A stretch of 64,000 bases of DNA from Takakia lepidozioides. Lineage: Eukaryota > Plantae > Bryophyta. Shown piece after piece: positions 22,698 through 57,900 of the stretch. The position numbers were made by a program, and so were the translations under genes. The notes beneath the pieces are model-generated. The model was given only the letters and a program-made list of their open reading frames with translations. It was not told the origin of the DNA and made no database searches. The DNA is taken from positions 13,082,001 through 13,146,000 of the forward strand of contig CM060734.1 of NCBI GenBank assembly GCA_030704615.1. Direction: 5' to 3'. The stretch's first letter is position 1, and each line of letters begins with the position of its first letter.

Positions 22698-23439
22698 AGC
22701 TACAAAGCTATAGCTTTGATTGACGCTGGTTATTCGGAGCCACCCCGACTCTCGCGCTCATAACCCTGCTAATTTATTGCTCTTGTTTCTTGGAGGAAAC
22801 CGCCTGCATGTAATTCTCGTTCGTGATTGGCTGTTGCCTCCTTGGGTAACTTCTTAATTTAACTCCCCTCAGTGGACTTTCCCCCCTGGAATGTCCACTA
22901 GGATAGCACATGCGGCAAAGATCCCCTTTTTCTGTACTCGTAAAGGGTTCCGTTACCCTTGCCCTGAATGCATTAATGGGCCCACAAATAGTTTTGCGGT
23001 GTGCTTCGCCCTGGCGACCACGGGTTTGTTTCTAGACCTACCTCCGTCTTTCCCTGTTCACGTGGCATTTTCTCCGAGTTTGACTTCCAAGCTGTCTTTT
23101 CTTCCGCCGGCCACTTTTCGGACGTTAACCCACGTCCACCTGTTACTGAACCTATTGACTGTGTAACCCGCGTGGGCTGTGTTGGGCTGTGACAGGCTGT
23201 GTCAAACTGTGGTGGGCTGTGATAAACTGTGTGGCACTGTTGTAGGCTGTGATAGGCTGTGTGATGTTGTGGTGGGCTGTGATATCTATGCGAACACCCG
23301 TGTTCTCCACTCAGGCCATACACATTCGGCTTTACGACAAGTGCTTCATGCTCCGTTGGTATTACCGGTGCAGCCCGTGACTGTTTCTGTGTTTTAATAT
23401 GCAAGTCGTGCTGCAATGGTTTGTCATGGATACCACTGT

Positions 23440-26400
23440 ATCCCTTCAACTTATTGGCATTGACTCTTCCCAGCATCTCTTTGTTAATGGTTTGTAACAT
23501 GGCGGTGTTGTTATCATACATCTTCTGTATGACATAAGGTCCTTTCCATGGTGATTTAAGCTTAGAAGCCTTAATCTTCCCCTTCTTTTGCAACCACAGA
23601 ACCAAATCTCCCGTCTTAAAAGTCTTTAATTTACCTTCATCAAAACTGATCCTTCCTCTTCATCTGAATTCTGGTCATGTTATCAGCTGCATCAGCACGT
23701 ACTTCTTCCACATGGTATAATTCATGTTTCCTGACCTTAATTGAATCTTCCAATTCCATTCTCCTTCCCCATTCAGTTCTCATGGTAGGTAACAAGAATT
23801 CCACTGGAAGTAAAGCTTCCATACCATAAACTAATTGGAATGGTGTATACTTAGTGGTGACTTTATATGAAGTCCTGTATGACCACAAAGCTGTCAGCAA
23901 CTTTGTATCCCAATCTGTTCTGTTTGCATTGACTATCTTAGCCAAGATAGTACATAGTATTTTGTTGGTAGCCTCTGCCTGCCCATTACCCTGTGGGTAA
24001 TAAGTTGTACTCTTCCTATGCACAATCATGCTCTCTTTAGTCAATAGTTCTATGGTCTCATTAATGAAGTGACTTCCCTGGTCACGGATAAATTCCAGGG
24101 GACAGCCAAATCGTGTAAGTATGTTCTCATACAGGAATCTTGTTGTGGACTTAGCTGTGTTGTCCCTCAGAGCTTTAGCTTCCACCCACTTTGTAGTATA
24201 ATCAGTGGCTGTGATTATATATTTGTTCTGTGTATTCTTGGCTGGTGGGTTAATTGGTCCAACAAAGTCTAGTCCCCATTTCTGAAATGGTTCAGTAGGC
24301 ATCGTAGGATGCAAAGCCATCTTCCCAGATCTCTGCAATGGTCCTAGCCTCTGACACTCATCACAACTCTTACAATACTTGTGTACATCCTTGAACAAAG
24401 TAGGCCACCAGTAACCTGCAAGTAGTATCTTTCTACTGGTAGTCTCTTCTCCAACTTCCTCCAAAACTTTTATTTACTTCATGGTGGTACAATCATCGTT
24501 TTAAGTACTCCATCAGGTCCTAGCGTATACATTCTGCCCCCTACCATAGGTAAAGCCTTGATAGCGATTCTCTTCCTTTGCTCCTTTCCATAACTAGGTG
24601 GGCACTGACCATGAGTAAGGTAGTATCTGATTGGCCACTGCCAATCTAACCAGTCATTTGCACTTCCCTGCACCTCCACTGCAAATAAACTTGCATTAGG
24701 TAATTGGTTGTCTACTCCTGTGGCTGGCTCTCCTGTTGATAGGCATGACAAGTGATCTGCCACAAGATGCAAACGACCAGGCTTGTAAACAACCTCGAAC
24801 TCAAACTCGTGCAAGATTATTAACCACCTTGCTATCCTTCCACTTATCAAAGGTTTGTTCACCAGATTTATCAGAGCCTGGTGATCCACATAAAACATAA
24901 ACTTCATTCCCAATAGGTAATGCCTGAATTTCTTGACTGCATAAATCATTGCCAGTGCTTATCTTTCAGTTGTGCTATAGTTCCTTTCAACACTGTTCAT
25001 CAACCTGCTAGCATAGTACACAAGTGAATCTATATTTCCTGTAACATTTTGGGCTAACACTGCTCCCAACGCTTCTCCTGAGGCATCACAGTGAACATGA
25101 AATACTACATGCCAGTGAGGGTTAATCAGCACAGGTGTAGTTGTTACTGACAATGTAAGTTCCTCAAAAGCCTGTTGACATTCAGCTGTCCATGCAAACA
25201 CTGCATCTTTCTTCAGAAGCTTGCTCAATGGTGCTGCTATCTGTGCATACCGTCTGACAAATCTTCTGTAATAACTGGTTTGTCCAAGGAATCTCCTTAG
25301 ACTCTTAACATTTACTGGTGGTGGTGAGGCTTTAATGGCCTCTGTCTTTCTGGGATCCACAAGAAGTCCCCTCTTACACACAATGTGTCCCAAAAGCACC
25401 CCTGAGTTCACACAGAAAGTACACTTCTCTGGATTCAGGCCCAGACCTCTCATCCTGCATCTGGCCAAACATAACTCCAATTTATGCAAGTACTCATTCT
25501 TAGAGCTGTACACACTGAAATCATCCAAGAACACCTGCATGAAATCATCCAGATACTCATGAAAAGATTCACTTATCACTCTCTGAAAGGTTGCTGGTGC
25601 ATTACAAAGTCCAAAAGGCATGACTTTGTATGCATAAGCACCCCAGTCTGTGATGAAAGTTGTCTTTCCCTGGTCTTCTTCTGCCACTTGCACTTGATTA
25701 TAACCACTGAAGCCATCCATGAATGAGTACATCTCATGGCCTGCCACAGTGTCTATCGCTTCTATGAATGGCGAAGGGAAAGGATCTTTCTTTGTACAAG
25801 CATTCAACTTCTTATAGTTCACACAAACTCTCAGTTTACCATTCTTCTTGGGAACTATCACAATGGGTGACAACAAAGTTGTATACTCTATCGGGTATAT
25901 AAACTTAGCCTCAGCCAACTTCTTGATCTCTTCTCCAACCTTCTATGCATAGTTGGGATTCATTCTGTACCTTGCCTGTTTGATTGGTTCTTACCCTGGT
26001 TCCAGTTCAATCTTATGCTGACAGATCTCAGGTGGTATCCCTTTCAGATCCTCGTAGCTCCAAGCAAATACATCTCTGTATTTGATGAACAGACTCTTAG
26101 CTTCCTCAAAGAATTCTGGCTCCAAATCAGCCCCTACCTTCACCATCCTCGGTTCCCCTTCAGTTCCCACATTCACTTCTCTCACCTGCTCATCAGCTGT
26201 GATTGTCCACCCAGTCACCACTTCATCCTGTAAACTCACAGCGGCTGGTTCCTCTAGGATTTCCATTTCTCCTTCTCTTTCTTCATAGAAATGTGGTGGG
26301 TAACTGCTTGTTTCACCCTCAATTGGTGTTGCTGTCACTACACCACAACATATACCTTTTAAACAACTTAGGCCTTCCAGTTGCATCTCTGCAACCTGCT

Positions 26401-27043
26401 CCCACTCTGGGTGTGCAGCGAACAGGGTAGCTTCCTGCTCCTCATCAAGTCCTCCCCTCCAGTCATACTCCCTGACCCCTCGAGGTCTTCTCGTAGCAAG
26501 TAATCTACTAGATTTCTTAGTGGTGATTTGTATCTTGTGCATCCCATCATGCACAGTTAGTAACTGGGAATTCCAGTCATGGAATACCCTGGCCTGTTTC
26601 AGCCACGGTCGACCCAGCAATAAGGAGTAAGCTTCCATGACTTCATCCATTTTCAACACAGTTACTGTGATCTTAAAGATCATCTTTTGAATCTGTATCT
26701 TAACTCCTCTTATCAATCCCAATGGTTGAACACTTCTTTGATCTGCCATTGTTACTATAAATGGGGCTGGTTTTATGTTACTTAGACCAAGCTTTTGCCT
26801 CAATTGGTCTGTCATGATATTCACTCCAGAGCCTCTATCTATCAGTACATCAGTTAGTTCTGTGCTTCCAATTCTCAATTGGATTACTGGCATAGAATCA
26901 TCAAAGTCCATGACTGTTTCTCGCCCTTCCGGCTTCACATTATAACTGGTCACCTTGTTGTTCGGGTCTGTGTTCCCTGTCACATAAGTAATCCGATTGA
27001 TTGCTTGATACAGCCTGTGTCTACAATAAGGTGCCACAGCCAA
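23440..27043 (-). pseudogene. pol: aspartic protease, RT, RNase H, integrase
   Basis: VLIDRGSGVNIM / LLLGRPWL (PR); YSFMDGFSGYNQ, MPFGLCNAPATFQR, FLDDFSVY (RT); VHCDASGEALGAVL, YVDHQAL (RNase H); [38 protein letters not shown] (INT). Confidence 0.93.
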
Positions 27044-27046
27044 TAG

Positions 27047-28890
27047 TTATCCAATGGTAATCTCCGCTTTGGACTGGCATATTACTTCAGCCAAAGTCCC
27101 TTCATTACTCTGCATTTCTGCAGCTTCTTTCTTCCCTTCATCCTCACTCACTTCCTCTTCTCTTTCAGAATCAGAGGAATCTGCCATAGGAATATCAGTA
27201 CTATTCTGCATTTCCCTTATGGTATCTGCCACTTCCTTGTGCAGTTCCTTCTCATCTCTCCAAGCCTCATCATCTTTAGGCACATCACTGCCATCTTTCA
27301 TTATCATCACCCCATTAGGTCCTCGCCCTTGGTCTGTTCTGGGATTGTTTCTGTAATCCTGATTCCCTGGCTGGTAATTCCCCCTTGGATTACCCTGATA
27401 GTTGCCTCTGGAATTTCCTTGGTAATTCCCTCTTGGATTACCTCTCCCTTCCATGCCATTGTTATAACCACTAGGCCTACCATAGTGGTCCTGATCACTG
27501 TTTCTTCTTGGCTAGGGCTGCACTTGATGCACCCTTACTTGCCTAGGTTCTCTTGCTGCTGTCCTTCTGTTGTAGTAACAATTCTTAGTAGAATGGTTAT
27601 CCATTTTACAGATAATACAATGTTTCTCCTTCATGTGGCATTCAGTGGTGGTATGGCCTTCATTCTGGCATTTTGCACACCAAACACCCTTCCTCCAATG
27701 TGTTGCAACCTCTGTGGCATACTTCTTCAAGATTTCTCCCTCTTCAACTTTTCCTTCCTCTTACTCTTCCTCTTAAGCTCTTGCTCTTCTTCCTCATCTG
27801 ACTCATCCTTAGAGTCCTCATCATCCCTTTTCTCTCTCCTGAGCATTCCCAATTGCTCAATTCTGTTCGCTGTTTCAAATGCCTCTTCCACTGTATTATG
27901 GGGTAATATATCCACTTTCTTTTGCAACTCTGGTCTTAGTCCACTCACAAACCAAGTCTTCTGTAAACCCGGTGCTGGTACAGCAGCCAGCTTTTTCATC
28001 ATTAATTCCATCTTTTCCATATACTCCTCAACAGTTTCATGCTTCTTTTGCTTTAACTGTTGTAAACTTCCATACACTTCATCCTCAGTTTTACTTGTCC
28101 TGAACCTATTTCGGAATGTTGTATTCAAGCCATTCCAGGTTAGGAAATGTTTATCAGGGAATCTTGCATACCATTCACTTGCTTTCTTTATAAGTGAATC
28201 AGGAAACAGTCTCATCTTGGCATCATCGCCATTCTCATTGTTCACAATACACATGTGCTCAAATTGGCTAATGTGTACATCAAGATCCCCTTTTCTTGAA
28301 TATATTGGAAAATGTGGTTTTGCCCGTGTTGGTTGTAACGCCATCTGTGGCCCTACCTTCTGCCCACTGACAGATGCTGGCACCTTTGCTGGTGCTGGTC
28401 CTTGAGGACCTGTTGTAGTTGTGGTGGATCTTCCACCCAGTGGTGGCCCCTGAGCACTCCCTGCTACTGGCCCCACGATATTCACAGTATTCCCAGCTCC
28501 AGTTGCACTACTTCCCACACTCCCTGTCCCCCCAGAGCCAGATCCAGGCTGCCCGCCTGTTCCCCCTGAGCCGACACCTTCGTTGGCCTGTGATCCAAGT
28601 GCTCCACTTGATCCAGGTCCAACGGGTTGGGATGTCCTGGTTGTAGTCTCACTCAGCTGCTGGGTCTACTTCTTCATACTCTTCATCTTCCAATTTCTTC
28701 TCCCTGTTTTCATCTTCCAAGTTCTGCCCTTGGGTTTCTTCTTCTTCACTTATGTAACTCAATTGCAATGGTGTTGGAGAGTTTGAACTCTCCGTTGGCT
28801 CTGCCACATCCTCTCCTCCTTCTTCATCTTCTATTTCAGAAACTAGAATTCCTGCTTTTGGTGTTCCATGCCAACTCTTATCAAAGATTT
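27047..28890 (-). pseudogene. gag with retrotransposon gag domain and two CCHC zinc knuckles
   Basis: ASEWYARF..LKQKKHETVEEYMEKM..FVSGLRPELQ; CAKCQNEGHTTTEC and CIICKMDNHSTKNC. Confidence 0.88.
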
Positions 28891-32592: not shown

Positions 32593-35500
32593 TTACCGTC
32601 TAATTACAAGGTATATGTAATATTGATGCTTGCAGGGGACCCACTTCCCTCTCATGCCGAGAGCGCCCTCACGCATCGTTACAAAATCCGGACAAGTGCA
32701 AGTAGGGAAATTCCCCACGGTAACCTGATATTCTTTGCCATGAAGAACTGAGCCAATAGACAGCACTGTGTAAGTCCGTCCATACCCCGGGGCAGGGACT
32801 TCGGTGATACGAGCCACCCGAGCCTGCAAAATTCTAGCCGATTCCATCTTGCATTCGTGATCTGCACCCGAAGCGACACGGCGCACTATTTTTCCATCTC
32901 TTTTTGTTGGGTGGGAGTCGGCACCGGGTGGAGGCATTGCCGGAGCATGTGGCACATCTGTGCCGACAGTGCATAAGGGCACCACCCGGGACCGCGCAAG
33001 ACAAAACCCTCCCTCCTCCAGCATGCTTATCTCGGTTGTTGACAGCGACGTCCCAAGTTTCACAGGCCAAATTGCGGGGGGAGAGGGTTTCATTATCACC
33101 GAAGGACGAACTGTTCCCTTGACGCATCGTGCCATATCGTCTGGGCAGAACCAGAACTTGTGGTCCTTTGACTCCCCACTATGATAAGGTCGGAACAACC
33201 CTGTGAATGTTGGAGCTGGAGTCCCCCTGGAGCCTTTGCATATTTTTGATTTGCATTTCTTGAAAGAGGGGGTCCGAATTGCCATGCAAACAACTCTAGA
33301 TCCTGGGGGTGCGTTGCTATATGCCACTCACTATCAATGCAATCAGATTCCTGCACCATGGCCACCACCTCCTCCAATGGGATTCCTGCTGCTGTGCTTG
33401 CATGTTTTGCACCTGCTCCACTGGAAGAGGACCCACCTGGGAAGGGGCTGGCACACGACTTACTCTGCACTGGAGACACCTTTGGCATAGAGAAATTGAC
33501 CCTGTCTGGGCGATGGGAATCTCCATCTGACCCTGGAAGAGTGTTCAATTTCCTTTTGCATGATCCAAATCTTTCCTCGCCTTCCAAATGTGGGAGCCTG
33601 GATTGCAAAGGGGAGCCTTCAGTGCACCTGTTCAGAGCTCTGGCCATCTTCGATGGGTCTCCGGACCTACTCACAGCCCTTAGCATCAACAAAGTCGTAC
33701 CGGGGCCCATGCCCCCACCCCGTCCCATCAGAAAATTGCGGTATCTGGTTTGTTGTGTAAGTGCCCGCACCATGTCATCAGCAGTGGCCACATACAAGTC
33801 ACGACCTGCTTTGGTAGATTGCTGCATCCAGGCGTTGTGAACAGTCTCCGCCAAATTACAGGATGGCATGTCGGCCAAGTCCTCCAAGGACATGTCCTGT
33901 AGGAGGCATTGCATGGAAATGTGAGGAACAAAAGGAAATGGAAGAGGTTCTGCAAGCGACAATCCAAGAACCCCAAATGAACAGGCACGATGCAAAATTT
34001 GTGTTTTTGGGATTGAAGAGGCTTACCGCCGTCATGAAAGCTCCCCACTGTTTGTACCTGAAGTGCCAGAAAACCAACCAGTCCTCCAACTCCTTCAGGT
34101 GGATACCAGTAGCAGCACCAGAGGAGAACCACCAAGCCCGGATTGCCTGGTAAGTGCTCTTAGCTTCTCCCATTGAGGTGGCATTTTTGTACTTGAGACA
34201 GAGCCTTCTGTGCTCCAACTGAAGGTCAAGGCGAATGCAGCGCTTTGTATGACGTGCCAGAGATTGACTCCAATGGAAGAGGCATGTGCGCTCCCTATTT
34301 TCCATTGGGACCTTAGGATCCCCCGAACTAAACACGCGCCGCACTGCATTGAAATTTGACTGTGCACTATCAGCCATGAAGCCCGCAAAATTTGTGTTCT
34401 GTATTCCATTGCGCTGCATGACGGCCAGGAGCGAATTCCACATGAGCATCTGGGATTCAGTGTCCTCCGACTGCATATCACAAATTGCTATTGAGAGCAC
34501 ACGCTGGTACGCTGGATCATACACATGGCACGCCATGGTTGTCCAACCCTTCACCCGTTTGCAGTGACCAAACATCAACCAACATTTAGCCAAATCTCCT
34601 CCAGGTTGCATTCGGCGGACAATGCTCACACCACTGCCTTCGCCCACTGCGGACATCTTGAACAAATACACCTTGGACGAGCCTTGGCCAGGGAAGATAC
34701 TGTTTTGAATGAATTCATAGCGACTTCTCCGTTTGAGGTCCATAATGTTGTCCATGAATCCAGCAGTGCCTGTGCCGACTCTGATTGCATTCCCCTGGTT
34801 TCGAATATTGGGAGAGCTCATCACGGAGAAATGGTCCATCACTGCATCAAGCAAATCTGTATCCAGCATTGGTTGTGTCGAATCCCCTTCACCCAGTATG
34901 TGTTTTTCCAGGAAAGCCTTGCTAGCTGCAAGCGCTATAGCAGAAGGTGTTGCACAAGGGGCATTGTGGAACTCCTGCTTCAGCAATTTCTAGCGATGTC
35001 CACGCTATCCCTGCAACTTCCTTTGGACACAGGATGCTCGTGTGCACCCATATGAATGCAGGCACGAGTCATTGTCTTGCATCGGTGTGCCACCTGGTAC
35101 ATACGAGCGTGGCACACAGAAACACAGGACGGGGAAAGTTTGCAGAACCTGCACACAAAAGTATTGGTCTTGGGAGGGCAGTCCTGGGTGCAAAGATTCA
35201 TCAGGGGCACACCTTCCCACTCACTTTCGTTTGATTGAGCGATGTTTCTCATCCGAGGGCAAGAATATTTAGAGCACTTGCAATGCCAACGCAAACCGAC
35301 CTTCAAAATTTCAATCCAATGTCGTTGTGGATGTTCGACGTTTTTGTCCTGCACCAAGGGTGTCCGTCATGTTTCTTGTCCATGCCTCCAGAAGCCCAGC
35401 CAATCCATTGGAAGACGTGGAGGGTTGAGCTCAAACAGATGTCCCCATCAAACTCTGCCGGCACGTATTGAACCCGCTGCACAACGAAGGGACTCCCAAT

Positions 35501-37355: not shown

Positions 37356-37436
37356 ACCCCAGTTGAGATTGTATTTCGATATGAACATAGTCTACACACG
37401 GCATCTCTGCCAGGTTGCATCAACCGCGAACAAGAA

Positions 37437-39720
37437 GCTCAAACAGTGTGCGTTGACGCACACTGTTTGAGCCTTCCATTTTGCTTGCTTGCTGATGTGC
37501 GAAACGGCCAAATTGGGGAACTAGGGCAGGTTCAATCCACCATGAATTGGAAGCTCAAACAGTGTGCGTTGACGCACACTGTTTGAGCCCCCCATTTTAC
37601 TTGGTTGTTGGTGTGCAAAACGGCCAGATAGGGCCACTATGCCCGGTTCAATCCTCCACTATTTGGAAGCTCAAACAGTGTGCGTTGACGCACACTGTTT
37701 GAGCCCCCTTATCACTGTTCTTCTCACAAAAAAATTACCCAGCCAGGGTATCTCTTTGAGGTTCAATCATCAATTTCCTGGTAGCTCCAGCAGTGTGCGT
37801 CAACGCACACTGTTTGAGCTCACCTTGTCATTGTTTTTTTTGTTTCAAAATCAGCCACACAGGGCTTGTCTCTGAGGATCAATGAACACTTACCTGGTAG
37901 CTCCAACAGTGTGCGTTGGTGCACACTGTTTGAGCCCACATTCTCATTGATTTTTCATCTGAAAAACGGCCACAAACGGCATGTATTTGAGGATCAATCA
38001 TCACTTACCTGGCAGCTCAAACAGTGTGCGTCAACGCACACTGTTTGAGCTCACCTTGTCATTGCCTTTGTCATCTGAAAATCGGCCACATAGGGTATGT
38101 ATTTGAGGATCAATCATCACTTACCTGGCAACTCAAACAGTGTGCGTCAACGCACACTGTTTGAGCTCACATTGTCATTGTTTTTTTCATTCGAAAATCG
38201 GCCACATAGGGCATGTCTCTGAGGATCAATGAACACTTACCTGGCAGCTCAAGCAGTGTGCATCGGCGCACACTGTTTGAGCCCACCTTCTCATTGTTTT
38301 TTTCATCTGGAAATCGGCCACAAAGGGCATGTATTTGATGATCAATGAACACTTACCTGGCAGCTCAAACAGTGTGCGTCAACGCACACTGTTTGAGCCC
38401 ACCTTGTCACTGATCTTTTCCTGTGAAATTCGGCAATACAGGGCATGTCTGTGAGGATCAATGAACACTTACCTGGCAGCTCAAACTGTTTGAGCTCACT
38501 TTTTCTTTGTTTTTGTCATCTTAAATTCGGCCACAAAGGGCATGTATTTGAAGATCAATGAACACTTACCTGGCAGCTCAAACAGTGTGCGTCAACGCAC
38601 ATTGATTGAGCCCACCATGTCATTGTTTTTTCGTTTGAAAATCGGCCACAGAGGGCTTGTCACTGAGGATCAATCATCACTTACCTGGCAGCTCAAACAG
38701 TGTGCGTCAACGCACACTGTTTGAGCCCACCTTCTCATTGTTTTTTTCGTTTGAAAATTGGCCACACAGGGCATGTAACTGAGGATCAATGAACACTTAC
38801 CTAGTAGCTCAAATAGTGTGCATTGGCACACACTGTTTGAGCCCAACTTCTCATTATTTTTTCATCTGAAAAAGGCCACAAACAGCATGTATTTGAGGAT
38901 CAATCATCACATACCTGGCAGCTCAAACAGTGTGTGTCAATGCACACTGTTTGAGCTCACCTTGTCAGTGCCTTTGTCATCTGAAATCGGCCACATAGGG
39001 CATGTATTTGAGGATCAATCATCACTTACCTGGCACTCAAACAGTATGCGTCAACGCACACTGTTTGAGCTCACCTTCTCATTATTTTGTCAGCTGAAAA
39101 AAGGCCACAAATGGCATGTATTTGAGGATCAATCATCACTTACCTGGCAGCTCAAACAGTGTGCGTCAACGCACACTGTTTGAGCTCACCTTGTCATTGC
39201 CTTTGTCATCTGAAAATCGGCCACATAGGGTATATATTTGAGGATCAATCATCACTTACCTGGCAGCTCAAACAGTGTGCGTCAACGCACACTGTTTGAG
39301 CCCACCTTGTCATTGTTTTTTTCCTGTGATATTCGGCAACACACTGGCAGCTCAAACAGTGTGCGTCAACGCACACTGTTTGAGCTCACCTTTTCTTTGT
39401 TTTTTTCATCTGAAAATCAGCCACTAAGGGCATGTCTTTGAGGTTCAATGAACACTTACCTGGCAGCTCAAACAGTGTGCGTCAACGCACACTGTTTGAG
39501 CCCACCTTGTCATTGTTTTTTTCTTGTGAAATTCGGCATCATGGGGCATGTCTTTGAGGTTCAATGCACACTTACTAGGCAGCTCAAACAGTGTGCGTCA
39601 ACGCACACTGTTTGAGCCCACCTTGTCATTGCTTTTTTCTTTGAATAGGGCGAAATATCATGTTCAAAACACTTGAATTTGGAAGCTGAAACATTGTGCG
39701 GCAACGCACGGTGTTTTTGG
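37437..39720. repeat. Tandem array of ~21 x ~116-bp units, each with a 36-bp palindrome GCTCAAACAGTGTGCGT-(CA/TG)-ACGCACACTGTTTGAGC
   Basis: Palindrome starts at 37437, 37553, 37669, 37784, 37900, 38015, 38131, 38247, 38363, 38479 and onward to 39582. Inter-palindrome sequence is also homologous between units. Confidence 0.95.
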
Positions 39721-39837
39721 CCCCCACAATGCTTGTTTTCTGGTGAGAAATTTGGCCACACAGGGCCTGTCTGCCATGCTCAAACACCATCGTTTCATGC
39801 CTCTCTCTTATATCAATTTGAATGAACAACCCTGCAG

Positions 39838-42800
39838 GAGAAGATGCAAAGTGTGGCGGAGGAGATCACTTCGGGGCAAGGGAATGAGATCATTGTTGAT
39901 GTTGACGATGAGTTCTATGAAAGCAAAGCCGCTGAGATGTTGTGGGGTCAGAAGGTAAACTCTCAGCTTGTGGTGCAAAGTATGCTTGCCCCGGGTGGGA
40001 GGTTGAAGATTCCCCTGTGTAGGTTGGTTTCCATGCCCGTCGTTCGTCCACCCCTCATCAAGGACATCCTGAAGCTAGAGGCGGAGTTTGTTCATGGGTA
40101 TTTGGATGGATCCGCAGTCTTTTACGTTTCTACAAAGGATTCCAGAGGCAATGAGTTCCTTGTGGATGAGTCAATCGTGGACTCCTGGGATCCCATTTGG
40201 AGACAGGTGAACGAATCCTTCGAACTTCTTCTTTCCAGGAAACCTTCCACCTAGGCATTCTCAGGGAAGATGTTTCACGTTTGGGATGACAACCACCGGT
40301 TGCTTGCATGGATGGCTGTCATTGGGAGGCTGCACTCACAGGAGGAAGAGTGGCATTACTCTGTTCGATCGATGGTGCTGGATTGCGACGGGAACATGAT
40401 GGGTCTTCTGACGGCAATGAATGATGTGAACAGGTTGGTTTCTCATTCTACATGTTCCACTTGTGGTTTCGTGGTTCTTTGATTCAAGTCCTTGAATTTC
40501 ATTCTGACTTTCAGATATCATTTTGCAGAGGGATGGAGACATTGCATGTCAAAACGAGTCTGGTTCACACACTGTATAGGATACAAAGGATCGGGCAGAT
40601 GCCCTTGACCAACTTCAAGACCATCCTTTTAGCAGAGACGTACAAGAAGTGTGAAAGCTCCAAGACATCGGAAATGTGGTACTCGTTGACTCGTGAGGCT
40701 TTCATGGAGTACATGTACACGGTGAGATACATCTTCCTTCATCTGGCCTTTCCATATTCCTACTTCCACATGTTTGTTTCTGTTTGTTTCCCTTGACCTT
40801 GGGTTGATGCAACTCTCGTGCATTCCCTTGCAGCAAGACATTGCAGATGCAGGGGAGCGTGGCAAACTGGAATACTACAGCTCAACCCCTGAGGAGAGAA
40901 GGACAGCAAAGGGGGTTGAGAGTCACATCCAGAAAGAGATGACCGCTACAAGAAGGACTATAATGAGTGCTTTTGTGAAGCAGTTGAGAATTGCCGACCC
41001 ATCATTCGGATCGCAGTTTCTCCTAGAGATAAAAAAACCATTATAACAAGCCAGGCAAGCCAGAGATGGCCTAGGAGAAGTTGCACAGGTTGTCTACCGC
41101 CGTTGTGTCTTCAGAACAGAAGGTGAAGTGGCTACAGTTATGGAACTCCGATCCCACAGTTAGGGATACCCACATGTTCCCCAGGCCGGAGAAAGAGAAG
41201 AAGACCCAGCGTGTCATTCCTGTCAGTGACAATGTGCTGGACACATGGCTTCACAAGGCCACTTACTGGAGCCAGGTGTGATGTCCTTTCCTGTGTCACT
41301 TTCTTTTCTCTTTTCCTGTCCTTCTCTTTCCATTGCCTCTTACATTCGCTGTGATTGTTTTTGGGTTCATTCTTGCATTTGAATTGTTTTGCAGTTGGAA
41401 GAAAGGGCCCGGTCGGTTCTGCATACTCAGCTGGCTGACTATGGCATCACTATGACAGCACCGAAGGTCTCCTTCGAAGCATACATGAGGAAATGGAGAG
41501 CCACAGTGTGGCACTCTTGTTTCTTTAGAGAGTTCAGCAAGGAGGGTGGCATCAGTCAAACAAATGACCTTGACTAGCAAGAAAAAGGAGAGGAAGCCTA
41601 GAAACGATGCCTTTACAGGTGCACACCCTGGGCCGTTCAGGCTACTTAGTGTGCTGTGGTTGCAATGTACTGTGCCGCATACTGTTTAAGGGGGTCTTCC
41701 TGGTGTGATGGAAAAGCTGAGAGACAATAATTGCATTGCATAATGAGGTTGTCTCTGTTCCTGCAGGTACATAAAGTTTGTTCTCATGGAAGATAATTGC
41801 TTAGACAAACATCCAGATTTCGTGGACCTTTGGCTTGTCCCTGCTGGCAACCAGACCATGTTTACTACTGGGATCTTGCATGACTCGGGCCCAGACCATC
41901 TTTCTTCTTGTGGTTGGTATTTGGATTGCCCTCCTTCTGAGACCCCAGCTCCGGAGGTGTCTTTGAGGAGAGAGAATGAGCGTATTGCAGCCACTGCCGC
42001 AGTAGCCGACCTCGACATTTATGAACGAAATTTGAGGACTCTTGCAGAGAAGGAACCTCCTGCTCAGGATACCCCGGGTAGAGGAAGAAAGGCAAAGGGA
42101 AAAGATGTTGCTGGTGTTGTGGGGAAAGGAAGGGGTAGAGGGAAGGTGGCACAAGGGCAGGGAAGTGTTGCAGATATTGGCCCAGTCGTGCATGTCCAGC
42201 AGACTCCACTGCATGGTAGGGGATCCATGAGAAAGAACAAGGGGGTGGTTGATCCCAAGGACCCGTACCATGCAGTGGAACATCCCACGAGGGTCATTTG
42301 CCCTACCAGGTTGGAGATGGCCAACGTCGGGTTCTTTGCCATGATGGAGTCCAAGAAATCTGATTTCAAGGGCGAGCCATGTGGGAGAGGATTGTGGAGT
42401 TCCTCGGCACGGTGCGTGTTCTCTTTTGCTTCTTCTCTGCTGTGGGCATGGATCGTTTCAATCCTCTTGAGTATTCCATTGTAATTTTGTTTGCAGGCTA
42501 AAATGACCAAATCCTGGGTGAACGGGAAGAGAAGCCATATGCAGCGAACTCATCATCTTGGACATCCCTGATGGGTTGGCAGTCCCGGATGTCCCTCCAT
42601 CGGGTGCTTGTTCGGGTTGGAATGCTTTTGATGAGCGTTATTGGCGGTGGGTTTTCTCCTTTTGCAATTTTTTCCTGTCCGATGCAGGTGTTTTGGTGCT
42701 CATCCAGTCCATCGACGTTCGCTGTCGCCGTGCACTTGCCAGCTATTTGAAAGCCTCGGGCATGAGAGTCGTGAAGACATGGAATTGTGTGAACAGCATG

Positions 42801-43544
42801 TACCTTACGAAGGGGGATCGTCCGGGAGAGATGGTAAATTTGCCTTCTTCTTCCCTTCTTGGTGGTTCTCGGATGGAGTTGTATAGGTCGCTCGAACTCA
42901 TATGTAGGGGCCTGATTTTTTAAGCTTCTTAGTTCCTTGTGGATGTCCTGTTCGCAGACTTGTTTGTTTGAAGCTGTTTGTCTCGTCCGAGTGCATCCAC
43001 CAACGACTCCGGCCGGCATTGCGGAGTTCGCCATCACTCATGGGGGCAAGTTCATAGACGACAGGATAGATCCTCCCACGGATGACATGCACCACAACCA
43101 CGTCGACAGCAACGTGTGCTTGCGAAGGGGGAATGGGGTTCCTTGGAGAGGGGCGAGGGAGAGGAGCTCGGCTTTCATTCAAACGATTGTGGAGTGCTGC
43201 ACCTACACAGACGCCAGAGTTCTGGATTTGTCAATGGGCACAGGTTCGTCTCTTCAACATTCACATTTCATGAGGTTTGATTGAGCTTGCACTTCCCACC
43301 GTTCCAAATGTGTCTTCAATGTCTGCTTCCTTCATTTTATTCCACTGTAGGTGCTTCGTACCACGCTTGCAAGGCCAGTGCGCGACATCTCTTTGGAATT
43401 GAAGGGGATGTTGAGATTTGCAAGAACCTCCTGATGGGTTTGGGTGGACACACTTCTCAAGTCCTTCCGAAGCCCCGTCCCGCTGATATTGATACAGATG
43501 AGACTTCCGACAAGGAGCTGGACTCCGACTTTACCTGTGAGTAA
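39838..43544 (+). pseudogene. Multi-exon ParB/Srx-like domain fused to a beta-class N4-cytosine/N6-adenine DNA methyltransferase-like domain
   Basis: N-terminal IPLCRLV..VRP..KLEAEF..GY..FHVWDDNHRLLAW (ParB DGNHR-like). C-terminal LIILDIPDG (motif IV position), then PWRGARERS..VECCTYTDARVLDLSMGTG|ASYHACKASARHLFGIEGD (motifs X-I-II; compare VLDPFxGSGTT..GRxxIGIE). About 8 GT-AG exons; stops at 40252 and 41044. Confidence 0.8.
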
Positions 43545-44145
43545 GTTCAACCTGTGGATGCTTGCATTGTTGTTTCAATATCGAGAATCACTGTTCTTGA
43601 GGCAAAGTTCACATGGGAGACATCATCTTCGTTGGACTTGTGCATTGCATCATTGTGTTCAAAATGGGTTTTTGTCGACATGTGCAGGAGTCCGCGTGCT
43701 TCCACTTACCCTCCAGGGCTATCACACCTATTTGGACTTCTTTCCAGTCCTCCTCGGTCTTGCGTGCTACCTGTCTATGCGGAGGCACTTGCAGCAAGCA
43801 TGTCCGTTCATGGCACTCGGAGTCCACCCATCGACGGCCGTGGTACCACTTTAGTTGATGTCAGTGTGCACCTCCTCACGACGTACCCACATAAACTTGT
43901 GAGGGCTTGGTATGTTGATAATGTCTGGATGGATGCAATGGATACAATGGATGTAACATATCCACTCTGCATTCCCGGAAAATGGCTGATCAACCCGCGG
44001 AAATAGGTGACACCCGCGGAAATAGGCCCTGTATGCATGCTGACGTGGCGTGAGCCTGTGCTGGGCTCACGGTTTCCTGGGCTCACAGGCTCACGGAATA
44101 GCACCCCCCCTCCGCTCAGCTTCACACTAGAAGCCTAAACTTGGT

Positions 44146-47739: not shown

Positions 47740-49083
47740 ATGGCAGGTGGCCTGCGGCTCTCCCTCACGCTACCTCCCACCACATCTTATCCAGGTGTGG
47801 CACCCCCTTAGTTTTTGTGCTTTCTGGTGTGCCTTACTCATATTTTCACTTTTTTTGTGTACCTCATGGCCTAGGTGGTGGGTTCACCACCCCGTATCCC
47901 ATGCAAAACAAACAATGCGTCCTCTTCAAAGTTTGTCACATTCATTGTCATTGTGTCTGTAGTCGAAGTTTATTGAATGCAGATCAGAGCTCCCATAGCG
48001 TACCTGGGTCTCCTGGTTTTGCAGGATGGACCTTGCAATACACATGTTTTCAGTCTTTCCATTACTGGATGGCTTGGCAGGGTTGAACAAGGTTCAAAGT
48101 CTGCAGAGGAAGGGGCGGGGGCGGGGTGGCTACTTGATATGTGCAGCAACACTCCCGGGCAAGTCCAGTGGTGGTGTTCTTGACAGACCCACGATTGAGA
48201 AGGCCACTCCAGGTCGAGAAAGTGAATTTGATGTAAGGTATGTTTCCAGTCCCCACCTCACCATCTGCAGAGTACACTGGCTATCTGGGAAAAATCCCAA
48301 TTTATGAGTTATTAACTATGTCTGAAAATCATGCCCATGTGTAGACATTTTTATGTGTAAATGTCAATCCCTGTTTCTGAAATGTGGAAAAGCAAAAGAC
48401 AGGGTTTAAAACCCTGTTGGACCGCTTTTACATGTACACAAACTGCATAAAACCCCTGAGGCACTGGGTCCTGTATGTAATTCTATTTGATTTATGATCT
48501 CTGAGTGTGCTGAGAGATAATAAACATTCTGAAAAGAGACCGGATTAGCATGTGTGAATGATAAGAGAGAAAGCATCTACAACCTGAAAGGGCAGCAGTA
48601 ATAGTTGTGCAGGTTTTATTGGACTGTGTGCTGAGTTTATCGTGATGATAGGGACCCAAAAGAGGCAATATTTAGCTGTCGACCATAAAGCCCTACAGTC
48701 TTCACAATGGTTGGAGCGAGTTAAAGTCACTTCTGTTATGTTTGGTTGCGAATTATCATTCTGGTGTATGTCACGCCACCTGAGACGGTTTGGAATAAGG
48801 CTGAACATAGGTGAGAGGGTGCAGAAAAGTTCGGAAGGTTGCACCACCATACCGTGTGATGCTGCACAACGATAACTATAACAAGCGGGAGTATGTGGTC
48901 CAAGTGCTGATGAAGGTAATTCCAGGCATGACAGTTGACATTGCAGTCAACGTAATGCAGGAAGCACATGTGAATGGGATGGCGATTGTCATTGTCTGTG
49001 CGCAAAATGATGCCGAGGAACACTGCTTGCAATTGCGCAGCAATGGCCTTCTTAGTTCCATTGAACCAGCCAGTGGTTGCTAG
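47740..49083 (+). CDS. CLPS1: Chloroplast ATP-dependent Clp protease adaptor ClpS1; probable join(47740..47794, 48054 or 48081..48237, 48825..49083)
   Basis: GGVLDRPTIEKATPGRESEFDVR|KVRKVAPPYRVMLHNDNYNKREYVVQVLMKVIPGMTVD..EAHVNG..CAQNDAEEHC.QLRSNGLLSSIEPASGC closely matches plant ClpS1. GT-AG phases are consistent; the transit-peptide exon is less certain. Confidence 0.93.
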
Positions 49084-50404: not shown

Positions 50405-51210
50405 ATGATGATGAAACCCTGTAAGACTTTATTTACAACATGTACAATGGGTGAACATACATAGGATGAGAAGTTCCCAAAAAGGGGGGGCGGGGAGGAA
50501 CAAGAAACAAGAGAAGAAAACAAACAGCTATAGTAAGCTACTCAGCTAGAGAAGAAAACAGAAGCTATAGTAAGCTACTCAACCAGAGACGAAAACAAAA
50601 GCTATAGTAAACTACTCAAGCAGAGCGACCCTCCCAGCCAACAGCCTGGAGGAGATCAAGCAAGGAGATAGGCAAAGTGTCAGGCATAGGCGGAAGATGA
50701 GATGACGCGGAGCTAGCCACATCAGCTCGATGCAAAATAGATATGGCTTGTGCTCTCTGCAAAGCAACTGAAACACGCTGTCGATAGTAGGCGACAAGGA
50801 CGGAGGCATGCGGGATGCCAGTGGACCCGCTCTTGGTTGCATGATGTGCATATGTCCGCAGGAAATCGTCGAAGTGCCGGTGCAATGAGCCAAATATCTC
50901 GACCGCCAGCGGAAGAAATCTGTCGGTGGGGTGACGATCGCTGTAGTCGCGCTCCTTGGCCTGAGCTGCTACAGTGGCTGTCGTGCCTGGTGTGGTAGCT
51001 GTGCGAGATAGCAGATCCATTCGAGTGGGGTCGGCGAAAACGACATCCGCTAGGGTACGCAAACCTCTAGATAGGACGATGTCAACACGGCGGCGTGTAG
51101 AGTGGGACGTGAGCGTGGGTCGTAGATGTGGTTGCTCACGCAGTACATGATACCCTGCCTCCCGAGCAATAGATGCCACCGCATCGCAAACCATATCATG
51201 AGACACAGTT
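50405..51210 (-). mobile_element. 5'-truncated CRE-like non-LTR retrotransposon (restriction-like endonuclease domain plus 3' UTR)
   Basis: HDMVCDAV..RRRVDIVL..LADVVFADP..AAQAKERDY..FLPLAVEIFG..RQRVSVALQRAQA. 3' UTR has 3 x ~35-bp repeats (50515-50618), AATAAA and a (CAT)n-like tail. Confidence 0.8.
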
Positions 51211-51249
51211 CCACGCTTCCTACTTTGCGTTCTCTTCAATTCATGCCCT

Positions 51250-54200
51250 ACAGTGCCCACACATATCACCACTAAAAGACTCTACTCAGTACTCAAGCAC
51301 TCGATCTTATTTGCCCGACTCACCCTCAAAATCCGCCCAACACCTCAGATCCTTGGCTCAACCCCTCCCCCCCTATATAGGTCCCAGCCGTTGTCCAAGA
51401 CCTTCTGCCCTACCATAACCCACCCCACTCCCACTGCAGATCCCCACACCACATATTTCACACCCTACTGTAGCACACTGAACCTTCTCAGCCTGCCTAA
51501 GCTCTCGATACCAGCGTTGCTTCCCTATTGGCACCTTGTTACACATACAGCCTCTCTGCTCATGCCCGCCGACTCTGCAAACTGCACCCACGACCACAGT
51601 ATTCTATTAAATAAGTCCCTCAAATGCCACACTTCATGCACTGCCCCCGCCCTGCTTGATTACACAGCCACTCTGCCACCTCCCCCATCTCTTTTATACT
51701 ACATCTCTCCCTGAATTCGCCCCAATACCCAGTTCACTTCCCCCTGTCCAGCTTCTGAGTACCAGCCATCCCCCATCTCAGCCCTGCCAGTTCTCACCCT
51801 CTGCCGAGCCATCCATCCTCACCAGCCTGGTGCTCCCATCAGCGCGCCCCCCCCCCTCACTTTCCTAGAGCACCAGAACTCTGACATGCATCAGCCTCTA
51901 CCCCTGGCCTTTTCGTACCCCACAGTTCATTACCTCCCAGACATGCCACCCCCCCCTTACTCTTTACAATACCCAGCATCATAAAACAACCCTTCAATAC
52001 CAGCCTATCTCTCCTCTCCCTCTCCTGCCAATGTGCCTGATCCCTCCCTCCCCCCTTGTCACCTGGCCCCACAACTCTGCCTCTGATCTATGGCCTGCTC
52101 CTGCTCACCACACTTGGTTCCCCAATTTATATTCCGCTGGCTTTTTCTCCCAGTATGTGCCCTTTACCTACTCTTCCCAATTTCATGTTGCCTCACTTTG
52201 CATATTCCCATAATAGGCCTTACAATGCCCTCACTGTATGCCCCATGTTCTAACTCCCCTCTCTCTTTTACAGGATGCGTACCAAATCTCCACTCCACAC
52301 ATTACATATGTCCCACATATGTTCATGTTCTTCATAGTCAGCACCACCTCTTTTTACAACTTGGTGAGCCCTTTGGCTTAAGGGAAGATCTCTCTCTTCC
52401 CCTGATTCACTTTCCTACTCTAACAATTCTCTCTCGCAGGCTTGCCCACTATCACCACCTGCTCAACCCTGTCACATCCAATCAGTACCGCCTCGTATTC
52501 ATACCCAGGAGCCCAAAGATGTCCCAACTATCTCACCCTCTCCTGCTGCCAAAGCATTCTGCTATTCCACCTTACCCCACTGCCCCAAAACACTGCCATT
52601 GGCATCCTCTATGGCCTCAGCTCAATCCCCGGTTCCTTCACTCTATGTACTCAGCCAGTAACCTCCCTTACCCATTCCACCCAATTCACCCCTCCCCACA
52701 CACAGGTGAGTGCCACGGCCTATCTCTTCTCACCCCCCTTGCCCATCTGCTGCCCCAACCTCAGGTCCCCTTCTTCCTACCATGCTTTCGAGCTTCCCTT
52801 CAACAACTATCTGTCCAACCCAACACCCACCCAGCTACCCACAAGCCAACTAACCTTAATCTTGTCTGCCTAGACTCCGCTAGACCCCTTTTGAGCAACC
52901 CCTCTTCCAAGTCTACTCCCCCCCCCCTCTCTGGGGCTGCCACATTCATGATAGCCACCACCCTAACAGTCTACCCCCCTCTTTACAATCTTGCCACAAT
53001 GCCCGTACCCCTCTTAGCACATACAATATGATCTCACTCTACACTGCATCTCGTTCTAACCCTTACTTCCTGATTGCAGGCTATCCATACAACACTTACC
53101 GCACAGCACACCCACACTTCCCCCTATGGGGCTCTCTCACACAATGGTCCTCTATATTCCACTCAGTCAGTTACATATGCCCCGGATATGTCCATTCAAA
53201 TAATTTGCAAAAAGCTTCCACACCCCTACCAATTACACACATATGTTCTGCATATGTACACTTATCACACCAGATCTGGCACCACAATCTCTCACCACAT
53301 AACTCTTGCGGCACCCTGCCATGTCATCCCACAAAGCCCTCTACCCATTCCGAATTCCATCTCTCCAGCAATTGCATATCATATGCCTACCCACCACTCA
53401 CAAGGGCCCTCGTTGCCTCACCATTTCATCCCTACCCCCTGCCCCCTCCCATCATCCGTGTCACCCCACCTCCCTTGCCCAGATTTGACCCATATGCCAT
53501 GCCAAGCCCTGAAAGTGATTACCTGTTATCTCACCAGCCGGCCACCACAACCCAATCCCGCATTCCCAACCCAAGACCCAATCAATTCTACTCCTACTTA
53601 ACACCCTACCACATGCAATACTCAGTATGCCTATACATATGCCCAAGCCCACACACTATACAACACATAAGAAACATACCCTGCTACCAATTTTCTCCCA
53701 TCCCACGCTGCTTGACCAACAGAATTCCCACTGTCTAAACAAATATCACTGGGCCCTGCCCACCTCAACTCCATTTACAGCTCCCTACCCCTGCTTGCAC
53801 CCAATATTAACCACCAAGCAACACTTAATGATATACCAGACTGCAGACTGCCAAAATTGCAACCTCTTAATACACAACTCTTCAAGCTGGATTAATTACG
53901 CCCCCCCCCCCCCCCCCCCCCCTCCCTTGTAATCACTACCTCCCACTTATAACCAAATCAACGCCGACTCCCAATCTCGAACCACCACACCCAACCTCAC
54001 CCACAGTACACAGTAAAGAGATGTTTACTGACAAAGGCATGCCACCACCTTGACATGCGTTTACACTTCTTAATACCTCTCCTTACTCCAATACCTCTCA
54101 GCCGCCACCCAGCCACAAAGGGCTAACGGCTCTAATTACTACACCAAGACAACCCTGCCGCCAGGCTACCTCACACTGCTGCCATACTGCCCCCACATAT

Positions 54201-54880
54201 AGGCTACAGCCACACCCCAAGCCAGCCACTTCATCCCCCCCACCACCTTGGCAATTTTGTCTCAACCCGCCCTCTCTGCTCTCAACACACTGCCCATCTC
54301 CCTCTTTTTCACAGCTCCCAACTGTTGGCTTCTCTCTACGTATGTCTCTTTCCAAACATGGTAGTACCCAGAAGAGTACAGGCAGTATCCAAAAGCACCA
54401 TCGTCCCCTCTCTACTATAGTCACCCGCACCAAATGAGCTAGCTCACTCCAGCTCGCGGCACTCCACTCCGCGTCCACAGCTAGTCACATGGATAAGGAT
54501 TATGACATGGACATCCGCTAGGAAGAAGGCATGGATGTCAGCGACATGCACCCCTCCGACGAATTATTCTTTGCAGCAGAGAACGCCTATTCCACACAGA
54601 GCCCTGCGAAGGTCAGCATTGAGCAGACTCCAGCAATTCAAGCCATCACCACCCCGTCATCTACAACAACACCCAGGAAACGGCGCGTCCCACCTCAAAC
54701 TGCAAACACCTCGCCAGTACAGCTCCCAGCTACCACCCCCCACTCCAAGCGGTCAGCTAGCGAATCCAACAGCGAGGCTGGCAGAAGCCCAGCTGACTCC
54801 AAAAAATCCAAAGGCACTGGCACACCAAGCCCCTCAACACATCGTAGCTACCTATTTCTCTCCAACATACAGCAATACTG
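51250..54880 (+). other. Strongly C/A-skewed degenerate region, probably a decayed non-LTR retrotransposon
   Basis: Composition matches the C/A-rich sense strand of the LINE fragment at 59.7-60.5 kb; no diagnostic motif recognised. Confidence 0.35.
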
Positions 54881-54916
54881 GATAGGCTACCCCACACTCG
54901 AGCAGCCTGCAAGGGA

Positions 54917-57900
54917 CTATTACTTCTTCATGAGTATGATTTTGAAGTTGTTCATAAACCAGGGAGATTACATGTTACAGCAGATCATCTGTCAAGGATT
55001 ACTACAGGAGAACCAGCCACGGGAGTAGAGGATCAACTTCCCGACGCATTTATGTTTGTTGTTCAACCAGAAGCACCAGATGAAGAGACAGATCCTATAG
55101 ACACTTTGGGAATGTTTCAAGGAGACTATGACCTTCCAAATGCGTTTAAACTCATGGATGACACTGATGAAGAAGAGGACTCATCAGATGAAGATGAACC
55201 TCTTGATGAAGGACCTATTATTGAGGAAGAGCCAGATCTAGAAGAAGAAGATGACAAGGAAAGCAAAGAAACAAACAATCAAAATATCAGTATTGGAGCA
55301 TATACAGTTACCAAGGAAGAATCAGAAAACATTCAGAATCAAGATCAAGATGATTGGCAATGGCCAATCAAATACTATCTGAACACAGGGAAATTTCTTG
55401 AAGACTACACCAAAGATGACAGGACGAAGTTTTCAATGAAAAGCAAGCCATACACAGTAATCAAGGGGATTATGTACAAAAGAGGAATTGACTCCATAAT
55501 GAGAAGATGTGTGAACAAAGAGCAAGCCAAAACAGTGATGCAAGAACTACACGAAGGAATTGCAGGAAGACACTTCAGTTCGGACCTGACAGCAAAGAAG
55601 ATATTATTAGCAGGTTATTGGTGGCCTACTGTATTTGGAGACACTTATGAACACTGTCAATAGTGTGATGTTTGCCAGAGGATGGGACCAGTAGAATGAA
55701 CTGGGAAGGGTACTATGCACCCAATACTACCAACAGAACCATTTCAGCGATGGGGGCTAGACTTCGTGGGACCCATTAAACCTCCAGCAAGGTACACACA
55801 AAACCAATACATCCTCACAACCACTGACTACACTACCAAATGGGTAGAGGCCAAGGCACTAAGAGACAACACTGCCAGATCGACAGCCAAATTCTTATAT
55901 GAAAACATCATCACACGATTTGGTTGCCCACTGGAATTCGTCAGTGATCAAGGATCACATTTTATAAATGACGCCATAAAATGCTTGACGGAGGAGTTCA
56001 TGATCGTACATCACAAGAGTATTGCTTACTATCCCCAAGGAAATGGCCAGGCCGAATCTACCAACAAGATATTATGCACTATCTTAACCAAGATAGTAAA
56101 TGCCAACAGATTGGGACACCAAATTGAACACAACACTATGGGCATTCAGGACATCATACAAGGTGACCACGAAACATACACCATTTCAACTGGTGTATGG
56201 AGCAGAGGCACTATTACCCATTGAATGTATGATACCCACACTACGAACCAGAACTCATGAACGATGGGGTTTAGAAGAATCTCTACGAGTCAGGGAATAT
56301 GAGTTATTCCATCTAGAAGAAGTTCGGGCAGACGCCGCAGATAACATGGCACGGTTCAAGAACAACAAAGAAAAAGAATATCCGAAGGGAAAGAGAAATC
56401 TTTCCAGGACGGGGACATTGTTTTGTGGTTACCAAAAATCAAGAAGATCAATCTGGGCAGAAAATTGAAAATGTCGTGGATGGGACCATTTCAAATCAAA
56501 AAGGTACATGACAATGGAATTGTTGATTTGCAGACCTTGGAACAAGAATTCGTGGGACGAATTAATATTAACAAGTTAAAAGGCTACCAAGGAATACATG
56601 ACAAAGCCCTTATACATGACTTATATGCCAATGAGGAAGATCAAACTGAAGATGAGGAGCGTGAAACCGCCAGCGCATACTACATTCATCACGACACGGT
56701 GAATCGGCATGTACTAAGACAGGTGGCAACACGAATTCAGGGCACCACGATGGCTAGACCACCATTCATCTGGAGGACAACATTACCACCCCATATACCA
56801 TATGGTGAACCGTGGCCAGCACAGATGTCCTACAGAACTGTGAACAAATACGAAGCAGCCAACGAGTCACTGCTTGTGTTAAACTCCGAGATGTACGCTC
56901 CAGATCACCCCACCGACCGTGGTAATCATACACCACTAGCCATCGATTATAACACGGAGGCAGAACGACGGCGCAATCCAACGGATTGCCAAAAGACGGC
57001 GGATGATAAGGGCAAAGCCATTAAACCAAGCTGCAAGTACTGCGCACACACCGCCCATCTAAAAACAGACCACGTACCAAAGTGGATGAACACATCCAAG
57101 ATGAACATAAACTGACCGAAACTGGACAATCATCAACAACCATCAGTTCGATCCAAAACAAACCACGGAGAAAACAGCAACGGAAGAAAATCAGGCACAA
57201 AAGGGATGAAGTTTTCTCAAAACTGTTACCAGAAGCTAAATGCTTCTTGGTAAGCCTGGGCCCAGCAATTAAAGCTAACTGCGCTTTAAACCTAGGCAAC
57301 CAGCATGACAGAATTACCTTCACGAAAACCTCGAGAGAAGTTAGAGGAGAAGCCTACAGAGGAGAACCCCTACTTAAACCCAGAAGCGAACTCCTCACCT
57401 TCTCTTCCGCAAACTGAAAATTGTTGTCTACACTTCCAGTGTGCTTCATACTCCTTGTGATACAGGAATTGGTGCTCCAATTCCTTACAGCAACCGCAAG
57501 ACTAAGAGAAATGGCAGGCACCAAGCGGAAGGCACCAAGTTCTTATGCGCAAGTGAATTTCAAAATCAGCCCGGCGTTACGGAAGATTGAGCAGGATACA
57601 GAGACACAGGAGACGTTGGACAATCTTGGTCTGCGATACTTCATCACCACGCTGGACTGGAACCTGAAGCATGACGAGCTGTGTAGGGAGTTCTTGGAGA
57701 ATTACAACACCAGCACTCGGAGCACAAATGTCCGTGACACACACATCCTGCTGACGGAGAAGTACTTGGCGGAAGTGTTTCACCTTCCCAATCTGGACAT
57801 ACCGGCGCACAGCGGCAAACCTCCAAGGTTTGTACTTGCAAATTTGTTTGAGAATCTCAACCAAGCAGATCAGGGCTACACATGCAATCACAACAAAAGC

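Follow-up and report, generated by a model that had tools for sequence, protein, structure and literature searches.

The window analysed here, a stretch of 64,000 nucleotides from the genome of the moss Takakia lepidozioides (contig CM060734.1), carries two copies of a gene for a protein with a β-class amino-methyltransferase fold as modelled, in which catalytic motif IV takes the form D-x-P-[E/D]-[G/N]. The aromatic residue that would grip the target base is gone in every relative examined, so that DNA bases are likely not its substrate any longer. As far as can be judged from sequence, this form of motif IV is likely to mark a protein that has ceased to methylate them. What is new here is the conserved exchange of the aromatic residue for an acid with the SAM-binding acids kept, as the combination of ParB-like and methyltransferase cargo is already in print for algae. 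The reading that we prefer, with a probability of about 0.45, is that the protein is a pseudo-methyltransferase that serves as a binding factor for its own transposon.

Organization of the two gene copies

The exon ends in both copies were set using splice signals and homologue mapping, and the genes in the window carry GT–AG introns, which together with its Gypsy elements and a ClpS exon give it a land-plant-like character. The first coding exon of copy 1 (39844–40434, forward strand) contains the sequence MFHVWDDNHR and one in-frame stop; most relatives read WDGNHR at this place, and we take DGNHR to be a ParB-type motif. This N-terminal region, which lies upstream of the methyltransferase exons and is linked to them, is predicted to be ParB-like. 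The middle exons, placed approximately at 40516–42480 (+) by homologue mapping, contain a conserved W-Y-[LV]-[DE]-x-P segment that is present in 20 of 51 related loci. The relatives P0047 and P0013 align to 41473–42010 and continue in one frame into the methyltransferase. Exon A (42497–42833, +), with AG and GT ends assigned from the sequence and with 55 relatives, holds motif IV, the WN lid, the LxDxG strand and WxxxN. Exon B (42958–43243, +), placed by alignment and by a spliced relative in runs guessed to be RNA, holds the altered motif X (WRGARER) and motif I (DLSMGTG), while exon C (43351–43544, +; homologue mapping) runs to the stop codon and contributes the motif II acid in GIEGD.

The whole visible part of copy 2 spans 61312–63076 on the reverse strand, with its ParB-like part lying beyond the window. 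Homologue mapping places the middle region and exon A at 63076–61955 (−), exon B with DLTCGTG at 61866–61602 (−) and exon C with AFEPD at 61517–61312 (−). The two copies match in five collinear tblastx segments that are 33–51% identical, plus one 12-residue match, and they are divergent paralogues of one multi-exon gene. A further segment conserved between them (43740–43796, + and 61045–61101, −; 47% over 19 residues) is located 3′ of the exon C stop and is possibly an extra exon or a second small gene.

Pfam searches with the window exons returned nothing relevant and single-sequence searches of the PDB gave no match. Word searches aimed at long homologues returned 0, 1 and 0 matches (the last one spanning only 866–2470 residues), so that a full-length spliced protein was not recovered.

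Motif IV in the window and across the family

The codons CTC ATC ATC TTG GAC ATC CCT GAT GGG at 42549–42575 (+) translate to LIILDIPDG, in which motif IV of copy 1 (DIPDG, i.e. D-x-P-acid-G, aligned onto DPPY) occupies 42561–42575. In copy 2 the motif reads NIPDG at 62197–62211 (−), as seen in the sequence and by tblastn with the relatives P0013 and P0017. This codon reading confirms the two motif forms reported in the earlier note on this DNA. Both are pseudogenes. In copy 1 single bases are missing at 42528 and 42544 compared with most aligned contig copies, both losses lying in exon A on the 5′ side of motif IV, and in copy 2 frameshifts and stops surround the motif.

The motif itself is invariant at the 1% level in the contigs: at 42561–42575 no substitution reaches 1% of the depth in 214 contigs from run X1, 79 from run X3 and five from run X5, and six sites close to motif IV do vary in the same contig set. 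Runs X1 and X3 come from a single sample, from which the window itself possibly stems, and the contigs were aligned to the window at 80%, a level below which the motif IV region of the transcribed relative described later falls. The gene is part of a many-copy repeat in Takakia, with 2,578 contigs of run X1 aligning over 1,261 bases, a depth that is not equivalent to a copy number.

A phmmer search with exon A against 1.84 billion cluster representatives resulted in 60 matches. Five of these (P0006, P0009, P0037, P0046 and P0052) were excluded as unrelated repeats, leaving 55 true relatives, and two of the 55 stop short of motif IV, so that motif counts refer to 53 sequences with a median pairwise identity of 34%. 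Their consensus is D-x-P-[E/D]-[G/N]. Position 1 is Asp or Glu in 51 of the 53 and position 3 is Pro in 47, while position 4 is Glu in 30, Asp in 16, Lys in three, Ser in two and Asn in two, corresponding to an acid in 46/53 and an aromatic residue in 0/53. After the motif, a Trp is found in 53 and an Asn in 54 of the 55 relatives. Together with the invariant contigs, the 46 acidic relatives rule out copy-specific decay of motif IV, in line with what had been argued earlier from the two copies. The claim that Asp occupies the aromatic position holds for both window copies; for the family it has to be widened, as the residue there is an acid, Glu or Asp, and not Asp specifically.

Bias from the Asp-bearing query was also considered and rejected. 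Matches of at least 39.7 bits, which are found whatever residue stands at position 4, are acidic in 24 of 29 cases and never aromatic, and a second set of relatives, collected with the ParB-like exon, is independent of the motif. This second set stems from a metagenome scan, with many near-duplicates among its 51 loci. In 18 of these, exon A follows downstream on the same strand, and the motif is readable in 16 loci, which represent ten distinct sequences. Position 4 in these ten is R, E, M, V, S, S, S, L, R and S, an acid once and an aromatic residue never, so the acid is favoured but not essential. The DPPY or DIPY that the earlier note named as speaking against its claim was thus not encountered, and the aromatic residue of [DNSH]-P-P-[YFW] that is expected of an active N6-adenine or N4-cytosine methyltransferase is found in none of the 53 relatives and in none of the ten ParB-found sequences.

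On a tree calculated from 60 rows and 102 columns, in which many forks are unresolved and a long branch leads to the phage outgroup, the non-acid state arises through five separate changes, i.e. the acid was lost at least five times. One clade of six non-acid members, with Ser, Arg, Lys or Leu at position 4, has a support of 100/98. The Ser codons at position 4 are of the type TCN and do not represent simple decay of GAN. When the motif columns are left out of the tree, position 1 shows a single class change and position 4 shows six, which ranks seventh among 36 polar columns; the tree length for this column-conservation test is 35.5.

Position 2 is aromatic in eight of the 53 relatives (EYPDG, DYPDG, DFSDG and QFPDG), which involves subclades with P0018, P0031, P0055, P0058, P0063 and with P0026, P0036. 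It is possible that an aromatic side chain here acts as a compensating stacking residue.

Fold and register of the motif

The relative P0017 contains exons A, B and C together in one frame. Its predicted model (pTM 0.51) has pLDDT values of 87–91 over residues 101–180 and low values from motif I onward. The model matches CcrM in Foldseek (E 6e-8) and M.MboIIA (VIA; Z 12.7, rmsd 3.3, 179 aligned). All 20 structural matches with a Z of at least 8 are β-class or MT-A70 proteins, and the next row follows at Z 6.6. ESM Atlas gave 0.94 to PF01555 clusters, and the PF01555 profile matches the family with at best E 0.21.

In sequence, the family profile vDliivDiPeg pairs with VDLIFADPPYN of CcrM with E 0.83, a match that is weak alone. 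Using tblastn, six weak matches (E 0.5–5) were obtained in phages, all annotated as methyltransferases. The family profile further matches three phage methyltransferases that adjoin terminase genes, 92% in the global and 79% in the local comparison, in an alignment that pairs DIPEG with DPPYN and WRGxREKD with HPTMKP as well as the motif I and motif II regions. No family relative was found in four scans of viral contigs.

In these models and alignments the family adopts the β-class (N6_N4_Mtase-type) amino-methyltransferase fold, circularly permuted with motif IV before motif I, and the DIPDG/NIPDG segment is motif IV, with D-I-P-E placed on D-P-P-Y. The segment aligns to the post-β4 motif of β-class methyltransferases, so that a misfit to strand β4, the other finding that the earlier note named as speaking against its claim, was not encountered either. 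A misregistered motif was likewise rejected, given this pairing and the fact that positions 5 and 6 are each aromatic in 0/53 relatives. The fold and the motif order IV–X–I–II are shared with CcrM, M.MboIIA, M1.HpyAVI, M.PvuII, N4CMT and the terminase-adjacent phage methyltransferases. Unlike in these enzymes, Tyr, Phe or Trp in motif IV is replaced by Glu or Asp, HPTxKP has become WRGxRE[KR]D and the Phe of FxGxG is lost.

The model of the ParB-like region is of low confidence (pLDDT 56). Its best fold rows, sulfiredoxin (E 1.5) and Noc (E 2.7), are not significant, and neither is the match to a serine kinase (Z 2.6, rmsd 4.1, 71 aligned); all three are presumably ParB/Srx folds. Pfam gave no match on this region, and a ParB profile did not match the N-terminal regions of the phage methyltransferases.

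The cofactor site

Motif IV of amino-methyltransferases is defined as [DNSH]PP[YFW], which leaves an acid at the stacking position outside the definition (PMC4738411). Stacking on the target base is the role of the aromatic residue (PMC4738411, PMC10406627), and on this point the earlier note agrees with the former paper. The DPPY mutant Y107G of HP0593 is inactive (PMC3036652). SAM binding by M1.HpyAVI requires the Asp of motif IV as well as the Glu of motif II and depends critically on the middle Gly of FxGxG, with a contribution from the motif X His (PMC5173035).

Both of these acids are kept in the family, the one in motif IV as Asp or Glu in 51/53 relatives and the motif II Glu in all six distinct exon C sequences, three of which are weak locus matches (E 0.18–0.61). 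FxGxG is altered among the seven distinct proteins and copies: Phe is absent from all seven, the middle Gly is kept in four and is Ala or Ser in three (P0013, P0017 and P0047), and the last Gly is kept in all seven. The His of HPT is replaced in 7/7, and nothing in the profile alignment corresponds to the β-class W-x-K lysine or H-E glutamate. In many lineages the fold can probably still accommodate SAM.

A transcribed relative

Contigs of 2,253 and 2,005 bases from the guessed-RNA runs X10 and X11 match the window at 42965–43245 and 43488–43519. They represent a relative in which 281 bases of exon B contain 46 differences. Around 107 bases are absent at the next intron, and this relative is therefore likely transcribed and spliced. 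Of the 32 listed differences from copy 1, 17 fall at third codon positions (p 0.016). The relative is possibly an active or a domesticated copy. Some of the same differences are seen in a DNA contig of 2,707 bases from run X1. None of the RNA runs listed contains the window copy itself.

Transposon context

Directly upstream of copy 1 lies a 116 bp tandem array (37409–39770) with 19 near-copies of a 36 bp palindrome that has no copies elsewhere in the window. These palindromes are candidate binding sites for the ParB-like region. Palindromes repeated at least four times are present in only one of the 51 related loci, most of which are decayed or short. The first three units of the array have the central TTG/CAA spacer opposite to that of the later units, which points either to an inverted portion of the array or to spacers that flip. 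A 96 bp tandem array (63253–64000) is located upstream of the first visible exon of copy 2 and runs past the window end.

Broken transposase-like ORFs with a C-terminal SWIM-like finger (32596–34989, −) are positioned head-to-head with the ParB-methyltransferase gene. For a Mutator-like (MULE) DNA transposon, of which a linked DDE transposase with a SWIM finger would be expected, SWIM scores E 0.062, below the Pfam cut-off, and there is no MULE Pfam match. Homologues of these ORFs are present in 12 of the 51 loci, five times head-to-head and seven times downstream on the same strand. No terminal inverted repeats or target-site duplication were found between the flanks. In plants the ParB-methyltransferase gene is likely transposon cargo.

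The remainder of the window contains an exon of the host ClpS adaptor gene (48811–49083, +; PF02617, E 9.5e-18) and three decayed Gypsy-type LTR retrotransposons at 52–2031 (−), 18925–28665 (−) and 54848–58941 (+), recognized by eye from reverse transcriptase, RNase H and integrase motifs. The second and third of these resemble each other (71% over 765 bases) and have extra ORFs after the integrase. Two inverted 99 bp tandem arrays (5083–5378 and 10102–10373), about 5 kb apart, resemble the subterminal repeats of another DNA transposon. The stop-free stretches 2491–3300 (+) and 50619–51281 (−) have no significant Pfam match; the latter resembles, in our view, the C-terminal part of a non-LTR retroelement protein.

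Related cargo has been described in algae. By its description, the Ectocarpus element Sola1-1_Ec32 likewise has an accessory protein in which a ParB-like domain is joined to a prokaryote-type N4C/N6A amino-methyltransferase. It is encoded on the other strand than the transposase and has been proposed to target the element that carries it, but it comes from a brown alga and an element of the Sola superfamily and is predicted to be active (PMC12477816). In Bostrychia, the Plavaka accessory genes PAG2/PAG3 represent ParB-like cargo beside inverted-repeat tandem arrays together with an N6-adenine methylase gene, on DNA transposons that include Mutator elements. There, as described, the fusion partner of ParB is a 2OG-oxygenase and that of the methylase, in which PF01555 is detected, is SET, whereas here the ParB-like region and the methyltransferase belong to one gene (bioRxiv 10.1101/2025.02.11.637652). 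The literature searched, including bioRxiv 10.64898/2026.08.24.746577, contains no report of this motif or of ParB-methyltransferase cargo in land plants; the Bostrychia supplements may show algal motifs.

Possible functions of the protein

If the protein is a pseudo-methyltransferase, its ParB-like region would bind the palindrome array of its own element, while the methyltransferase fold would serve as a DNA-binding, chromatin-binding or scaffolding module that would help the element to escape silencing or to transpose, as VANC does. The acid at position 4 would stabilize the post-β4 loop or contact DNA or a partner, and not take part in catalysis. We favour this reading because the stacking residue is gone (absent in 53/53 and 10/10), several contacts are altered (Phe and His replaced in 7/7) and the acid, with its five or more losses, is dispensable in some clades. 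The palindrome array beside the gene and the transposase-like homologues in 12/51 loci also speak for it. Precedents are found in the pseudo-enzymes MTA9 and METTL14 of the same fold (PMC12485025) and in the methyltransferases of DIRS1 transposons, which are predicted to be inactive (PMC4738411). VANC, an accessory protein encoded by VANDAL transposons, likewise has targets that are specific to its element and lie in tandem repeats; the abstract mentions neither a methyltransferase nor a ParB fold for it, and the activity of VANC has been shown, whereas that of the plant family is proposed here (PMC5735166). What speaks against a pseudo-enzyme is that the pocket is clearly constrained in the position 1, W-N and position 4 columns. 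Retention of the motif IV acid together with the motif II Glu leaves a cofactor site that would be expected of an enzyme more than of a scaffold. The ParB fold rows without significance and the failure to find terminal repeats also count against this reading. To our knowledge, the plant ParB-methyltransferase family has no active paralogue as a partner. MTA9, MTA9-B and METTL14, which belong to the same fold group (Z 8–9) and bind nucleic acids without being catalytic, are in contrast paired with an active paralogue, and they differ from the plant family, in which the SAM-binding acids are kept (PMC12485025).

It is possible, although doubtful, that the protein is instead an active enzyme that has been rewired, with the position-4 acid binding a cationic amine, such that a protein lysine or N-terminus (for example of histones over its own element) or a polyamine would be methylated or aminoalkylated. 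The D-x-x-D that follows β4 has the spacing of Asp173 and Asp176 of spermidine synthase, which bind the amine substrate putrescine and are needed for catalysis, and two similar aspartates are used by METTL13-C, a protein N-terminal methyltransferase (PMC6109062). Spermidine synthase has an unpermuted fold, however, and matches at Z 5.4, compared with Z 12.7 for the permuted DNA-methyltransferase type, so that the likeness would be convergent. Both SAM-essential acids are kept and the position-4 acid is conserved across clusters with a median identity of 34%, including 24/29 of the query-unbiased matches, as an enzyme would suggest, and red-algal transposon cargo couples an N6-adenine methylase with a SET domain (bioRxiv 10.1101/2025.02.11.637652). 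Against this stand the repeated losses of the acid, its occurrence in only 1/10 ParB-found relatives and the replacement of the motif I Gly in 3/7. The alternative drawn in the earlier note, altered chemistry or substrate or else a dead SAM-binding or DNA-binding factor, is supported by the family-wide loss of the aromatic residue and by the fold, and the losses of the acid limit its 'new chemistry' arm. A bolder version, which we consider rather unlikely, is that plant transposons made an amine methyltransferase out of a DNA adenine methyltransferase of the phage type, in which case D-x-P-[E/D] would grip a lysine or N-terminal amine much as spermidine synthase does putrescine, the ParB-like clamp would load the enzyme at the palindrome array and the element would write a chromatin-protein mark of its own. 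A DPPE motif in branched-chain polyamine synthase could not be confirmed (PMC12979288) and does not enter the argument.

There is little chance that the protein is still an N6-adenine or N4-cytosine methyltransferase of DNA or RNA in which stacking on the base is taken over by a different residue, for instance the invariant Trp of P-x-W-N. This Trp aligns to one that CcrM has beside its Tyr and is thus inherited and not a replacement, the acid falls outside the [DNSH]PP[YFW] definition (PMC4738411) and copy 2 has Asn at position 1, even if positions 1 and 3 are well kept (D/E in 51/53, P in 47/53), another residue helps to place the base in MTA1 (PMC12485025) and 4mC or 6mA is the predicted product of the ParB-methyltransferase cargo in algae (PMC12477816). 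Least probable of all is a neutral relic, in which the aromatic residue was lost once, the acid persists by descent or as a structural cap and the domain is functionless. Every copy read at the DNA level is decayed and non-acid states recur, as would fit such a relic, but the strong column conservation over the tree and the excess of third-position differences in the spliced relative (17/32, p 0.016) argue against it.

The algal papers propose that cargo of this kind lets transposons write 6mA or 4mC on themselves. With the stacking residue lost family-wide and the pocket conserved in this plant lineage, it is not safe to take ParB-methyltransferase cargo for a DNA methylase. If the protein is a pseudo-enzyme, as we prefer, it would be one that is encoded by a transposon and serves self-recognition. 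If it acts on amines, a DNA-methyltransferase fold would have been re-aimed at proteins or polyamines, and it may then provide a sequence-targeted epigenome tool.
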